Positions 3,459-32,000 of a stretch of DNA of 32,000 bases are shown in pieces. Source of the DNA: a virus; IMG/VR virus record IMGVR_UViG_3300045988_175865, positions 60,001-92,000 of that record; one strand, given 5' to 3'. The position numbers and the translations under genes are program-made. Every line of letters starts with the position of its first letter. The first letter of the stretch is position 1. The notes below the pieces were generated by a model. The model was not told the origin of the DNA and made no database searches. It saw only the letters and a list, made by a program, of their open reading frames with translations.

Positions 3459-3872
3459 TTATATCCATGTCTTTAAAGCTTCCAAAAAAGCTGATTCTAA
3501 AGCTTCTTCATATGTATTATAATCTACTCCACTTGCATCTATACTATGAGGAGGTCTTACAATTTTCTTAGAAGGATCTATCTGAATATCAACGATTTTA
3601 TATGTCCAATATCCATGAATAGTGGGAACTATTATAATATGTATCTTATGAATATCTCTTAACCATTTTTGAAGTTTAGATTGAGTTGGAGCTAAATAAT
3701 AATTATCTGTAGGATCATAAAACTTACAATTCCAAAGCACTCCTTTTTCATCATAACAAGGGCTACAATTTACATATCCTAATTTTGGAAATAGTTTAGA
3801 TATTCTATTTCCATCCATATAATGTTTTTCCTTTGCAAGTTTAGCAGTATCAAAAGTAATATGTGATTCCAT
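3459..3872 (-). CDS. paralog family A protein (AKLAKEK-GY ... WLRD ... EAL..AL)
   Basis: ORF track, start trimmed to ATG 3872 (TAATG overlap with the upstream stop); similar to 16697..17095 and 21563..21931. Confidence 0.65.
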   Translation of the reverse strand: MESHITFDTAKLAKEKHYMDGNRISKLFPKLGYVNCSPCYDEKGVLWNCKFYDPTDNYYLAPTQSKLQKWLRDIHKIHIIIVPTIHGYWTYKIVDIQIDPSKKIVRPPHSIDASGVDYNTYEEALESAFLEALKTWI

Positions 3873-4219
3873 TATTCCCAAGGTAAAATTTTCTGAGTTA
3901 TTCTTTTATAGTTATTTAATATTCCTAAGATGTTTGCTCGACCTACAGGATTTGCAGATTGACTTGCAAACTGTGGAAGGACATATCCTTCATCTATACA
4001 TTTATCTACAATATACTTGGCTATATCGTATCCAGATTTTTCCTCTCCTAAATCATGATCGAGACAAATTGCATAAGGTCATTCTTTTTCAAGGAAGTCA
4101 ATAGCTTCTTGATAAGACTGAGCCCATACAACTTTACAATTTCTGCCAATTGGACTAAAATTCATCCAATCATCTTCCATTGGATTACGAGCATCATCTA
4201 TCCAAAAAAGTGTTTTCAT
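3872..4219 (-). CDS. receiver-like domain protein (cyclic-phosphate-processing receiver type), 115 aa, one in-frame TGA
   Basis: Manual code-4 translation MKTLFWIDDARNP...EKE(TGA=W)PYAICLDHDLGEEKSGYDIAKYIV...; TGA at 4079-4081; missed by the standard-code ORF track. Confidence 0.7.
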
Positions 4220-4221
4220 AA

Positions 4222-4467
4222 TCATCTAATTCTTAAATGAGAAAGTAAATTAAAAACTATTAATATAATACAAGCCATAGTTGGAATAAAGTTTAAAGGA
4301 GTCCAAATGAGTATTATAAAGACAAAGCTACTAATATATTTATCCTCAGTATAGTATAAATACATATCTCCTAGAGTAGTTCCTTCTTTAGATTTTATCC
4401 TCCAATAAACGTAGAGAATAATATGATTAATAATTATACATACAAACCAGCAATATACAAATTCCAT
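4222..4467 (-). CDS. small membrane protein, paralog family B
   Basis: ORF track 81 aa; C-terminal half aligns with 5995..6402; apparent stop is TGA, giving 8 more codons under code 4. Confidence 0.6.
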   Translation of the reverse strand: MEFVYCWFVCIIINHIILYVYWRIKSKEGTTLGDMYLYYTEDKYISSFVFIILIWTPLNFIPTMACIILIVFNLLSHLRIR

Positions 4468-4517
4468 AATTATATTTTATTTAAATGAAATTTTCACTAC
4501 CTAATTATTTATAAAAG

Positions 4518-4589
4518 TATCCCCACCTTGATTCGAACAAGGACCTTTCGGGTAGAAGCCGAAGATTCTCTCCATTGAACTATGGGGAC
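4518..4589 (-). tRNA. tRNA-Arg(UCU)
   Basis: Manual cloverleaf: acceptor GTCCCCA/TGGGGAT, anticodon stem TTCGG/CCGAA, loop CTTCTAC, T arm CCTTG-TTCGAAT-CAAGG. Confidence 0.85.
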
Positions 4590-4630
4590 TAAATAAATAG
4601 TTTATCTTACTATTTATATAAATATTATTA

Positions 4631-4960
4631 TTAAAGTTTTTGAATATTCTTCATAAAAACTCTAGTAATAATATCTATATTCATCTTACATTGCTCAAAT
4701 ATATCTATTTTATAAGAATCTTTCAGTGGGCTATCCTCTTTGTATGGCCAATGTGCAATTATAAATTCATATTCACATCTAGCCCAGTATTGATACATTA
4801 ATTTTCTCGTTACAAAATCCTTACACTGCTCAAAATTTTCTTTAGAAGGTTTATCTGCTTTATAAGCATCATTATACTTTCTAACTAGGTAAGGCATTAT
4901 ATCATAATAGGTTGGTTTATTTTTATTATATTCTAACCATAATACTTTGAATGGTATCAT
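4631..4960 (-). CDS. hypothetical protein, 109 aa
   Basis: ORF track; ATG start, TAA stop. Confidence 0.6.
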   Translation of the reverse strand: MIPFKVLWLEYNKNKPTYYDIMPYLVRKYNDAYKADKPSKENFEQCKDFVTRKLMYQYWARCEYEFIIAHWPYKEDSPLKDSYKIDIFEQCKMNIDIITRVFMKNIQKL

Positions 4961-4971
4961 AAATTTTACTA

Positions 4972-5169
4972 TTACAATTTTTCACCTAAATAATTAACTT
5001 CTATAACATTTAAATAGTTAACTTTAAATGGATAATCATCAACTATAGTATTATACTGTATACAAACACTTTTTTTATCTGTATCATGAAAGCAAGATAC
5101 AACATGATTGAAATTGATATTACAGTTATATCCTTCACCTATAATATTAATAATATTTATCTTTTTCAT
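4972..5169 (-). CDS. hypothetical protein, 65 aa
   Basis: ORF track; ATG start, TAA stop. Confidence 0.5.
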   Translation of the reverse strand: MKKINIINIIGEGYNCNINFNHVVSCFHDTDKKSVCIQYNTIVDDYPFKVNYLNVIEVNYLGEKL

Positions 5170-5209
5170 ATTGTATTTATGTAAAAGCTCTTAGTAATAA
5201 AATCTTAAC

Positions 5210-29971: not shown

Positions 29972-30064
29972 ACATCACTTATGTATTAACCTAACATCAG
30001 TATGTATCGTGTCAATGTATCAATCTGACATCGGTATGTATCAATCTGACATCACATGCTGTAT
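29972..30064. repeat. iteron array, core ACATCRNNTATGTAT, including an 18-nt perfect repeat
   Basis: Core copies at 29972, 29994, 30028 and 30049; ATGTATCAATCTGACATC at 30015-30032 and 30036-30053 (21-bp period). Confidence 0.8.
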
Positions 30065-30138
30065 TACAATATTAATAATTATTTATACAAATTATATAAA
30101 ATAATATACAAATATTTTGTATATTGTAATATTATTCA

Positions 30139-30146
30139 TATTTTTG
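30139..30146 (+). promoter_or_regulatory. Bacteroidota-type -7 box TATTTTTG
   Basis: Matches TAnnTTTG, 24 nt upstream of ATG 30170. Confidence 0.4.
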
Positions 30147-30169
30147 TACTATAATTAAAATAACTAATT

Positions 30170-30952
30170 ATGGAAGAGAAAAAAATATCAAAACAACATA
30201 TTCAAGTTCCACATAATCTAGGAGAAAGAAATGAGGAAATAAAAATAAAAATGAATCCAACAGATTATCTTGTATATGGTTATTTACGTAAATTTATGAA
30301 TAAAGATACTTATCAAACGCTTGTGTCTTTAAGAAAGTTAGCCAATTTAGTAGATGTATCTATTAACACTGTACAAGCTAGTATTAAAAAGTTAAAAGAA
30401 GCAGGAGAGATTAAGGTTTTGGAAGAAAAAAATGGTAGAAGTAATATATATGAAATACAGAAAGGCAGTAAATATTTTGAACGATTTACTTTTGAATTTT
30501 TAGATTTAGATGATAATATTCTTAAACCTGAAGATAAGGGAGTTCTGTTAGCGATGCAACAATATAGTGATACTTCTAGCGGAACATTTGCCATTAATAC
30601 TAGTTCTAATAGAGAGTTATCTAAAAAGTTACATATTGGGACTAGAGCCTTATCAAGTGTATTTCAGAGACTTGAAGATAGAGGCATTTTAACTACAAAA
30701 CCTCTTACTACCAGAGATTCTATCACAGGATTAAATAAAACTGCTAAATATATAGATTTATCTATTATTTGCCAAGCTATATTATTTATCAATAAAAAAG
30801 TAGATGAACAAGGTGAACAGATTAATGAGCATGATAAGAGGCTACATACTGTAGATAAAAATATTCTTAAAATGCAAGAAGAGATAAACAGACTAAAAGA
30901 AATTATTGAAAAGAGTAATTTAAAAGAGTCATCAGGCTTTAAATTTGAATAA
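30170..30952 (+). CDS. winged-helix DNA-binding protein with C-terminal coiled coil, paralog of 26860..27621
   Basis: ORF track 260 aa; same order of features (KFMNKDTYQTLVSLRKLANLVDVSINTV..., second HTH-like segment, coiled tail). Confidence 0.6.
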   Translation: MEEKKISKQHIQVPHNLGERNEEIKIKMNPTDYLVYGYLRKFMNKDTYQTLVSLRKLANLVDVSINTVQASIKKLKEAGEIKVLEEKNGRSNIYEIQKGSKYFERFTFEFLDLDDNILKPEDKGVLLAMQQYSDTSSGTFAINTSSNRELSKKLHIGTRALSSVFQRLEDRGILTTKPLTTRDSITGLNKTAKYIDLSIICQAILFINKKVDEQGEQINEHDKRLHTVDKNILKMQEEINRLKEIIEKSNLKESSGFKFE

Positions 30953-30956
30953 AAAT

Positions 30957-31166
30957 ATGGATCAACAGAAAAACTTACCATTTAGTTTTAATCCTATTAG
31001 TTTAGAAGGTATAGGAGACGATTACAGTATTATCATAGATACAGGTAGAGATCATTTAGATAGATTTAAAACAAGGGAAGAGGAGAGATTAGATGAGCTC
31101 TACGATAGAGTAGAGAAGTTAGAATATAGGATTGTAGAACTAGAAAACAGGTTAAGGAATAGATAA
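30957..31166 (+). CDS. small coiled-coil protein, 69 aa
   Basis: ORF track, trimmed to the ATG at 30957, just after the upstream stop. Confidence 0.55.
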   Translation: MDQQKNLPFSFNPISLEGIGDDYSIIIDTGRDHLDRFKTREEERLDELYDRVEKLEYRIVELENRLRNR

Positions 31167-31194
31167 GTTATTATTACTGAATAGTAGAATATTA

Positions 31195-31226
31195 TTTGTT
31201 TTTGTTAAAAAAAAATGTTATATTTG
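31195..31226 (+). promoter_or_regulatory. Bacteroidota-type promoter (TTTG then TATATTTG)
   Basis: -7 box TATATTTG at 31219-31226; TTTG at 31195-31198 and 31201-31204; ATG at 31252. Confidence 0.5.
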
Positions 31227-31251
31227 CGAAATAAAAAGTAAATATACTAAT

Positions 31252-32000
31252 ATGGATATAACCTACAAACCGTATATTAGAGATTCTTCATTTAAAGAAT
31301 TATCTATTAAAAGTCCTACTATTAATATTAAAGGATACAAACCTAAATATACTATTAAACAAGATAAAGAGGAGACAATTACTCCAGTAGAGTCTCCAAT
31401 AGAAGAGATACAAATGCATAAGAAACCTAAGATTAAAGAGGCAACTGCAAAAGCCATAAGATTTGAATCTAAAGAGGAGTTTAAGGATACTATGATTCCA
31501 ATATATGAGTCTCTCTTAGTTAAGAGGGGTTTAAATCCAGTATTTGCCAAAGCTTTAGTAGCTCAGGATGGATTAGAGTCTGCTTGAGGGTCTAAACCAT
31601 CTGGAAATTTTAATTTTGGGGGGATTAAAGGTAAAGGGGCTATTAAAAGAACTAGAGAGGTTATTAATGGTAAAGATGTCTATATAAATGATAGTTTTAG
31701 AGATTTTAATTCTCTAGAAGACTATGCTAATTTTAAGATTGACCTACTTAATAGTAATCGTTATAATGCTTTCTCAGGGAATATTTCAGAGTTTGCAGAT
31801 AGGGTTCAAAAAGGAGGATATGCCACAGATCCAAACTATTCTAGGACTTTAAACAAGGTAATTGCTACTGCTAAGTATGGTGGTACTCTTAAACTTCAAC
31901 TAGGAGGTGTTGTTCAAGGCAAACAATGAGTTAAAAATTGATATAAAAATCGTACATTTCAGATAAAAAGAAATATACAACAACATCAATTAATACCTAT
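31252..32000 (+). CDS. GH73 N-acetylglucosaminidase-domain protein (lysin or virion-associated hydrolase), 3' partial, three in-frame TGA codons
   Basis: Code-4 translation AQDGLESA(W)GSKPSGNFNFGGIKG...GGYATDPNYSRTLNKVI matches GH73 LESGWG and YATDP motifs; TGA at 31585, 31927 and 31939; open to the window end. Confidence 0.8.

Follow-up and report, generated by a model that had tools for sequence, protein, structure and literature searches.

In-frame TGA codons and their reading as tryptophan

The 32,000-nucleotide (nt) stretch of DNA analysed here, which as a whole is termed the window (positions 60,001–92,000 of the IMG/VR record IMGVR_UViG_3300045988_175865), is the early or auxiliary block, together with the first late gene, of a human-gut crAss-like phage of the Zeta group with a genome of about 165 kb. 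Several genes in the window contain in-frame TGA codons, and the subject of this study is how the phage reads them. An initial annotation had listed 12 such codons, placed the genes that carry them on both arms of the window, and assigned TGA to tryptophan (Trp) rather than to glycine (Gly) or a stop. A scan for open reading frames (ORFs) with translation table 4, in which TGA encodes Trp, reproduced all 12 codons at their positions, and the placement of the recoded genes on both arms is supported.

The cREC_REC receiver-like gene (3872–4225, minus strand) has a single sense TGA at 4079–4081. With Trp at this codon, its product matches Pfam PF20274 (E = 4e-19), and when the codon was masked as X and distant homologues were aligned, the corresponding column was Trp in 118 of 120 homologues. 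The codon is TGA in the window strain and TGG in four divergent related loci. The gene for a LicD-family phosphotransferase (8015–8893, minus strand; Pfam PF04991, E = 2.3e-39) contains four sense TGAs (8801, 8777, 8579, and 8174) and one TGG, and is called publicly under code 4 as a protein of 292 amino acids (aa). After the same masking, the TGA at residue 31 falls in a column that is Trp in 115 of 116 distant homologues; the column at residue 105 is divided between Trp (28 homologues) and Tyr (27), and those at residues 39 and 240 are variable or hydrophobic. The start of the LicD gene overlaps by 20 nt a gene for an IspD/TarI-like cytidylyltransferase (8874–9554, minus strand; Pfam PF01128, E = 3.6e-27), which has neither TGA nor TGG codons.

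On the plus strand, the first 249 codons of a 750-aa lysin with GH73 and lysozyme-2 domains begin at 31252 and run off the window at 32000. Three TGAs are located in this portion (31585, 31927, and 31939), and with Trp at these codons the product matches Pfam PF01832 (Glucosaminidase; E = 5.2e-17). The TGA at 31585 aligns to the Trp of VESGWG in PDB 7qfu, in agreement with the earlier statement that it occupies the invariant Trp of this family. The whole gene, as seen in locus L010 (11082–13334), contains 11 TGAs and no TGG. In the flanking DNA, one TGA of an RNase H gene likewise aligns to a conserved Trp, that of a DLW motif.

Two further ORFs are less informative. A mobile HNH-type endonuclease ORF (12126–12503, plus strand) has three sense TGAs (12342, 12393, and 12411) and no TGG. 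Its motif CANCHRLLH is encoded 3′ of all three TGAs, Pfam gives only a weak match to the Stc1 zinc ribbon, and the ORF is present in the strains of loci L002, L004, and L006 and absent from that of L001. Homologues were gathered with the TGA-free N-terminal 72 residues as the query, and in these the columns of the three TGAs hold variable or hydrophobic residues, which are not diagnostic. A putative 57-codon ORF (20522–20695, minus strand) contains one TGA (20657–20659); neither homology support nor a public gene call was found for it. Inspection of the residues aligned to TGA therefore gave Trp for LicD residue 31, cREC_REC, and GH73, whereas LicD residues 39 and 240 and the HNH columns proved variable.

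Codon exchange between related strains was examined at 154 in-frame TGA sites and 103 TGG sites in the long ORFs of the replication and structural arms of the phage. Among the TGA sites, the alternative codon in related strains was TGG at 24, GGA at one, and CGA at one; TAA, TAG, TGT, and TGC were not seen as alternatives at any of the 154 sites. Conversely, TGA was the alternative at 18 of the TGG sites. Thus, variable TGA sites change to TGG in 24 of 26 cases, and variable TGG sites change to TGA in 18 of 20. Together, the conserved Trp columns and this reciprocal exchange solidly support, from sequence comparison, the assignment of TGA to Trp in this phage, as the initial annotation had proposed.

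Other meanings of TGA have precedents. TGA encodes Gly (code 25) in Gracilibacteria and Absconditabacteria; the phage has its own tRNA-Cys(GCA), which might insert Cys as a near-cognate; and a tRNA(UCA) in a sister lineage (described below) is labelled as selenocysteine-specific by ARAGORN. However, the informative columns in LicD and cREC_REC are invariant for Trp and hold no Gly, GGA replaces TGA at only one of 26 variable sites, and the Cys codons never do so. The presence of up to 26 TGAs in a gene is incompatible with insertion of selenocysteine that depends on a selenocysteine insertion sequence (SECIS), and no tRNA-Sec was found in the window lineage by ARAGORN or Rfam. Decay into pseudogenes is contradicted by the TGA-containing genes themselves, which are kept at full length across hundreds of contigs. 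Because of the Trp columns and the codon exchange between strains, Gly, Cys, selenocysteine, and pseudogenes are ruled out for practical purposes, and that any of them applies is extremely unlikely.

The TGA-poor block and TGA as a stop codon

The use of TGA is highly uneven along the genome. Positions 1–31250 of the window belong to a TGA-poor block compatible with the standard code, which extends about 6 kb further past the left edge and contains all the tRNA genes, a gene for transfer-messenger RNA (tmRNA), and the auxiliary genes; in total, it measures about 35 kb, with roughly 60 small genes. By codon counts per gene, the minus-strand arm of the window has 88 TGGs and about eight genuine sense TGAs, the latter consisting of the one in cREC_REC, the four in LicD, and several in small ORFs that are themselves doubtful. 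Past the left edge, the next eight genes have no TGA and 21 TGGs. The other arms of the genome contain 154 TGAs and 103 TGGs, a composition that differs from that of the minus-strand arm of the window with p = 5e-20 (Fisher's exact test). TGA is the main Trp codon in most of the replication, structural, and lysis genes, such as those for the helicase (eight TGAs, no TGG), primase (six and one), TerL (nine and three), a tail fibre of 1084 aa (25 and eight), and a virion protein of 2975 aa (26 and five). Recoding in this phage therefore affects replication genes as well as late genes.

The same division is evident in coding cover, which was defined as the fraction of sequence under ORFs of at least 100 codons, with TAG as a sense codon serving as the control. 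Outside the window, reading TGA as sense raises the cover from 0.56–0.78 to 0.87–0.99 and extends the longest ORFs from about 450 to up to 2977 codons, whereas the TAG control has little effect. Within the window, the cover rises from 0.50 to 0.59, which is below the TAG control (0.62). Thus, the comparison of coding density proposed with the initial annotation yields a clear gain outside the window and none above the control within it, and coding density inside the window is not part of the case for Trp. The window is mostly code-neutral, and the heavy use of TGA is in the replication and structural arms outside it. The initial claim that the window is decoded with code 4 does not hold in that form: the window is mainly a TGA-poor block, in which TGA also acts as a terminator.

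The evidence for termination is clearest at an 85-codon gene on the minus strand (17105–17362) that ends with TGA at 17105–17107. The same codon is TAA in loci L079, L080, L084, and L104, the flanks of the stop codon are conserved, and the ATG of the next gene (132 codons; 16697–17095, minus strand) follows 9 nt downstream. The public code-4 gene call merges the two genes into a single protein of 221 aa (16697–17362). This protein is an artefact of code-4 calling, because the call ignores a stop codon that is TGA here and TAA in relatives.

Three more minus-strand genes have TGA at their ends. An 81-codon gene (4222–4467) ends in the arrangement TGA-TT-ATG, in which the ATG (MKTLFW...) is the public start of cREC_REC, and a TAG follows seven codons on. 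A 238-codon gene (18407–19123) ends with TGA-GCT-TAG, so that a backup TAG lies one codon after the TGA. A 190-codon gene (19125–19697) ends with TGA-T-ATG, and the stop is TGA in all the lineages seen. The stop arrangements of all three genes are kept in relatives. Read-through of UGA later in infection would add 12, 7, and 1 residues to the genes that end at 19125, 4222, and 18407, respectively, before a TAG is reached, and at 17105 would yield the 221-aa fusion with the next gene. Comparison of relatives demonstrates that TGA terminates at least one gene of the block (17105–17362), and all four genes probably terminate at TGA.

These observations bear on the possibility of a uniform code 4, in which UGA is a Trp codon of the host, the phage has no need of a decoder or a switch, and all TGAs in the window are sense. 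Such a code would be consistent with the failure to find a suppressor tRNA (see below) and with the rarity of TGA at gene ends (at most four of about 62 ORFs), and published host guesses for some opal-recoded Zeta phages include Mollicutes-related Firmicutes (PMC12386605, Table 1). However, the exchange of TGA and TAA at 17105, together with the three genes in which TGA precedes an ATG or a backup TAG, argues against a host that natively uses code 4, and in such a host the phage would have no reason to avoid TGA strongly within a single stretch of about 35 kb but not elsewhere. In addition, the closest annotated relatives of TerL and of the SPFH protein belong to Crassvirales that infect Bacteroides, Flavobacterium, and Cellulophaga, which use the standard code. 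A uniform code 4 is therefore very improbable, and the pattern of TGA stops instead favours a switch in the meaning of UGA during infection.

tRNA genes and the search for a UGA decoder

ARAGORN identified 11 tRNA genes and a tmRNA gene in the window, all on the minus strand and all confirmed by Rfam. The tRNAs are tRNA-Arg(TCT) (4517–4589); tRNA-Cys(GCA), tRNA-Ser(TGA), and tRNA-Asn(GTT) (6801–7081); tRNA-Ala(TGC) and tRNA-Thr(TGT) (7524–7898); tRNA-Gln(TTG) (9757–9832); tRNA-Met(CAT) (19721–19794); tRNA-Leu(TAG) (22233–22316); and tRNA-Leu(TAA) with a second tRNA-Met(CAT) (23340–23522). Relaxed ARAGORN settings add a doubtful tRNA-Pro(tgg) at 7149–7221. The tRNA block is mosaic between strains. 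In agreement with the initial annotation, ARAGORN and Rfam found no UCA or CCA anticodon among the tRNAs and tRNA-like elements of the window.

Rfam also detects two tRNA-like elements with long insertions, both on the minus strand. The first (23537–23665; 129 nt; Rfam tRNA, 32.8 bits) has intact acceptor and D arms and a regular T arm, but its anticodon loop (CUAAUA) is of 6 nt and its variable region bears three additional hairpins; it is absent from loci L001, L002, L004, and L010. The second (23801–23905; 105 nt; Rfam tRNA, 34.7 bits) likewise keeps its acceptor and D arms, whereas the anticodon arm is aberrant, the T stem is bulged, and the variable region contains one additional hairpin. 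This element occurs in some strains and not in others, and it is 100% identical in an otherwise approximately 84% identical lineage (L090, 3669–3773). Both elements were considered as disguised suppressors and rejected, since UCA does not occur in either, the anticodon loops are of 6–8 nt, and some strains that keep the recoded genes lack them.

The tmRNA gene (10715–11138, minus strand) was detected by ARAGORN and by Rfam RF00023 (50 bits; gathering score, 47). It encodes a tag of 27 residues, AKNTVRKMANKVMPLATPMRAQVAFAA, terminated by TAA. The tmRNA is found in many related strains with differing tags, is missing from L003 and L005, and is not mentioned in two papers on Zeta crAss-like phages (PMC7886860; PMC12386605). 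A connection between the tmRNA and the absence of a suppressor was dropped, as the tmRNA is present in the window lineage and also in the sister lineage that bears a tRNA(UCA), and is absent in some strains.

The initial annotation placed the decoder elsewhere in the phage, or else attributed decoding to a property of the host. A composite genome of about 165 kb was obtained by walking outward from the window, with concatenated end-proteins as queries for overlapping contigs. The right arm was walked on close relatives, namely IMG/VR contig 159576, whose tRNA block matches that of the window at about 90% nucleotide identity where the two share it, and then OLVX01000015. The left arm was walked on the window strain for about 16 kb and then on contig 156265 of a related lineage. 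The two walks meet where L067 overlaps L068 and L115. Across this composite genome, ARAGORN and Rfam found no tRNA outside the block of the window, and no UCA or CCA anticodon. A custom scan for a UCA anticodon arm (a 5-bp stem with a NUUCARN loop, combined with a 7-bp acceptor stem), which recovered its positive control, gave only A+T-rich coding noise in the composite genome. A motif scan of the window for hidden T arms or UCA anticodon arms returned only the known tRNAs and the antisense of tRNA-Ser(UGA). Thus, the scan for tRNA-Sup or tRNA-Trp that had been proposed for the complete contig was run on the composite genome and found neither, and a decoder elsewhere in the phage was not found on the walk. 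At the level of detection of these scans, tRNA(UCA) and tRNA-Trp are absent in this lineage.

Two other sets of candidates were discarded. Relaxed, intron-tolerant ARAGORN produced about 170 calls per 32 kb, of which a small number have tca or cca anticodons. The folds of these are poor and their positions are in coding or A+T-rich sequence, and they were treated as noise. Islands of high G+C content were considered as structured RNAs: that at 25948–26421 is a G+C-rich ORF, and the fold of 29854–29952 is not tRNA-like.

Relatives of the phage carry putative decoder tRNAs of unusual form. In a sister lineage whose SPFH protein is about 74% identical, a 91-nt tRNA(UCA) of 61% G+C is located at L111 12173–12263, L112 12665–12755, and L114 13454–13544. 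Its anticodon loop (CUUCAAA) is canonical and its T loop is not, the D stem measures 3 bp, and the variable arm is long; ARAGORN labels it 'SeC', and Rfam misses it even at E ≤ 1. It is missing from L113, though the cREC_REC protein of that locus (P0134) is the same as that of L112 and L114, and neither the window nor the loci that make up the composite genome yielded a homologue. The lineage of contig 156265 has an ordinary tRNA-Trp(CCA) of 73 nt (L090, 20453–20525), and a second tRNA-Trp(CCA) of 84 nt (L101, 2555–2638) has a long variable arm and an acceptor end resembling that of the 91-nt tRNA(UCA). As dedicated decoders are gained and lost in the group while the recoding persists, they are suggested not to be the core of the mechanism. 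The invisibility of the 91-nt tRNA(UCA) to Rfam could explain the 'no suppressor' reports of covariance-model tools for some opal-recoded Zeta genomes; several such genomes have '-' in the published suppressor column (PMC12386605).

It is possible, if doubtful, that the phage encodes its own UGA decoder, either as a non-canonical RNA missed by the scans or in the roughly 40 kb of the composite genome that come from a related lineage only. The escape of the sister tRNA(UCA) from Rfam is in keeping with this, as are the several aberrant tRNA-like genes in the window and its relatives, and divergent suppressors have been suspected in the literature (PMC7886860; bioRxiv 10.1101/2021.08.26.457843). 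However, neither a homologue of the sister tRNA(UCA) nor a UCA anticodon arm joined to an acceptor stem was found beyond A+T-rich coding noise, the G+C-rich islands outside the known tRNAs do not fold like tRNAs, and the sister tRNA(UCA) is itself lacking in L113. Nor are the tRNA-like elements of the window good candidates, as both lack UCA and are absent from L001 and L010, which have the same TGA-laden genes.

A separate tRNA-like gene of 71–72 nt is located about 2.4 kb upstream of the SPFH gene in related contigs (L085, 7581–7652; L086, 7594–7665; and 11 further loci). It has good acceptor, D, and T arms, an anticodon stem of only 3 bp, and a 6-nt loop (GUUGUG), and is 97–100% identical across the 13 contigs.

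Candidate mechanism and relation to known systems

As a whole, the observations are best explained if the genome uses TGA in two senses, which differ between genes and probably also between stages of infection; we give this explanation a probability of about 0.8. The block with the tRNAs, tmRNA, and auxiliary genes is readable with the standard code of the host, nearly all of its Trp being encoded by TGG, and the meaning of UGA would switch during infection. cREC_REC, LicD, the HNH endonuclease, and the GH73 lysin would be completed only once UGA is decoded. The factor responsible for the switch must then be encoded in the TGA-free block, because it has to be translated under the standard code. 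An early phage protein or RNA from this block may block release factor 2 (RF2) at UGA, or may alter the host tRNA-Trp. The host tRNA-Trp(CCA) would then read UGA by wobble in middle and late genes, which contain hundreds of UGA codons. Early genes that end in TGA would rely on backup TAG or TAA stops after the switch, and the phage tmRNA might recycle ribosomes that run through host UGA stops. The suppressor tRNAs of sister lineages would be optional boosters.

The molecular part of this proposal, in which UGA is read as Trp without a dedicated tRNA because RF2 is neutralised or host tRNA-Trp altered, and tRNA-Trp(CCA) of the host is the decoder, is tentative, and about as probable as a hidden non-canonical decoder encoded by the phage. 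A comparable situation has been described in Escherichia coli, in which attenuation of RF2 for UGA results in insertions at UGA of which about 80% are Trp from the native tRNA-Trp(CCA) (PMC11903333), and a switch of code during infection has been proposed for other phages (Borges et al., bioRxiv 10.1101/2021.08.26.457843).

Several points weigh against the proposal. No RF2-directed factor was identified in this phage, and among the proteins of the TGA-free block, Pfam searches gave no match to a release factor, an aminoacyl-tRNA synthetase, or an enzyme of tRNA modification. We know of no phage factor that acts on RF2. Genes with 11–26 TGAs need very efficient decoding, and wobble by tRNA-Trp(CCA) at that level in Bacteroidota is only putative. 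An equally aberrant decoder could have escaped the scans, since the tRNA(UCA) of the sister lineage evades Rfam, and about 40 kb of the composite genome are represented by the related lineage only (approximately 70% nucleotide and 86% protein identity). Furthermore, the proposed timing of expression is deduced only from which genes are present and where they lie.

The window is 99.9–100% identical to human-gut contigs of 164–193 kb, for which public gene calls use code 4, but one contig was called with code 11 and is fragmented. No close relative was found in the GenBank phage collection. The SPFH protein is 48% identical to those of crAss001-type phages, proteins of 772 and 736 aa belong to the PHROG terminase and portal families, respectively, and the best annotated matches of TerL are Crassvirales with about 30% identity. 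The structural arm contains two group I introns detected by Rfam (L035, 19895–20093, and L065, 1174–1394; 66 and 70 bits), GIY-YIG and LAGLIDADG endonuclease ORFs adjoin introns and fragments of core genes, and PolB in the other arm is split into several ORFs (L044, 11649–15495). Within the structural arm, L115, which is OLVX01000015.1, is 99.3% identical to L068 over 10.5 kb. A gut origin with contigs of 164–193 kb (genomes of the group are of 145–192 kb), a crAss-type TerL and portal, introns with homing endonucleases, and near-identity to a listed zeta genome together assign the phage to the Zeta group, and its sequence places it within or next to subgroup zeta_12.

OLVX01000015 is listed as a zeta_12 genome with the entry 'TGA|w', eight tRNAs, and no suppressor anticodon (Yutin et al., 2021, PMC7886860, Supplementary Data 1). 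The zeta_12 genomes as a set (OLRF01000054, OLVX01000015, and OGYM01000002) are listed with 'TGA|w', 8–15 tRNAs, and no suppressor anticodon, and the tRNA set of OLRF01000054 is much like that of the window (PMC7886860). These authors, the Lera-phage paper (PMC12386605), and a preprint (Borges et al., bioRxiv 10.1101/2021.08.26.457843) all note that a suppressor goes undetected in many TGA-recoded phages: a TGA suppressor was reported in 27 of 79 gut zeta genomes (PMC7886860), and the preprint puts the share of code-4 phages that have one at only 35%. The initial annotation was thus right that TGA-to-Trp recoding is known in gut phages; it also regarded the extent of recoding and the missing decoder as open points, but the recoding and the absence of a suppressor are already recorded for zeta_12 (PMC7886860). 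What is new here is that the window is mostly standard-code, that TGA is a stop at least once, and that no decoder tRNA was found in the composite genome. With the zeta_12 phages, whose genomes are of 164–172 kb, the phage shares the size class, the human-gut source, introns, homing endonucleases, and a fragmented PolB, and it differs from them in nothing essential; the zeta_12 publication does not include early-block TGA stops, tmRNA, or aberrant tRNA-like genes (PMC7886860).

Other known systems resemble this phage in part. The Lera phage and ct1yV3 ('Echekvirus', Zeta) have genomes of about 180 kb, read TGA as Trp, and carry a tRNA block at one genome end; Trp-encoding TGA occurs in about 18% of their ORFs, mostly structural and lysis genes and TerL (PMC12386605). 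Lera differs in encoding both tRNA-Sup(TCA) and tRNA-Sup(CTA), neither of which is present in the window lineage, whereas in the window lineage replication genes are recoded as heavily as structural genes. In the Jade phages, standard-code genes come first and recoded lysis and structural genes later, with TGA read as Trp in a standard-code host (bioRxiv 10.1101/2021.08.26.457843). However, Jade phages carry a suppressor tRNA, tryptophanyl-tRNA synthetase (TrpRS), and release factor 1 (RF1) in one operon, and none of the three was found here. Mycoplasma and Spiroplasma, which use code 4, share with the phage UGA as a Trp codon, an A+T-rich genome, and a preference for TGA over TGG in many genes; unlike the phage, in which no such tRNA was found and TGA ends at least one gene, they have a tRNA-Trp(UCA), lack RF2, and never use UGA as a stop. 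In the Ochre lineage of E. coli with attenuated RF2, the native tRNA-Trp(CCA) reads UGA as Trp (PMC11903333), as is suggested here, but this is an engineered bacterium and not a phage.

Gene calling in this phage requires care: table 11 shatters replication, structural, and lysis genes, and table 4 joins or overextends early genes whose true stop is TGA. The phage was found in more than 800 assembly blocks, and its abundant group of gut phages offers a clean case in which to ask how UGA can be made to mean Trp in a host with the standard code when the phage lacks a suppressor tRNA; the delimited TGA-free block of about 35 kb makes the search for a code-switch factor experimentally approachable.

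The remaining features of the window and its flanks are as follows. A run of TGA-free genes to the left of the window (L007, 10001–16948) and at 42–1118 within it encodes an IMPDH/GuaC-like protein, a Peptidase_C26 amidotransferase, a COOH-NH2 ligase, a GATase_6/7 protein, and proteins of unknown function; together these look like a pathway of nucleotide or nucleic-acid modification. The corresponding block of the sister lineage (L112) encodes NAPRTase and NAD synthase, which belong to NAD salvage, and adenylosuccinate synthetase.

The segment at 5678–6402 (minus strand) varies between strains. L001 has an intact DUF3307 gene of 105 aa and L003 has a gene with a YqeY domain; in the window, the frame at the position of the DUF3307 gene (5678–6100) contains TAG at 5875 and 6001 and adjoins a 135-codon ORF with no Pfam match. 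Similarity at the DNA level to other families of crAss-like phages is confined to 20507–22812, where two hypothetical genes match cr108_1 with 76% identity; within this region, the 36 nt at 20508–20543 are identical to an unannotated spot in cr111_1.

Two parts of the window stand out by base composition. The 160-codon ORF at 25977–26459 (minus strand), which has no Pfam match, is 55–60% G+C in a genome of about 30% G+C and looks recently acquired. A 100-nt island of 60% G+C with a G9 run (29838–29952; fold z-score about −2) directly follows a perfect 8-bp hairpin and lies upstream of an HTH_36 gene at 30170.

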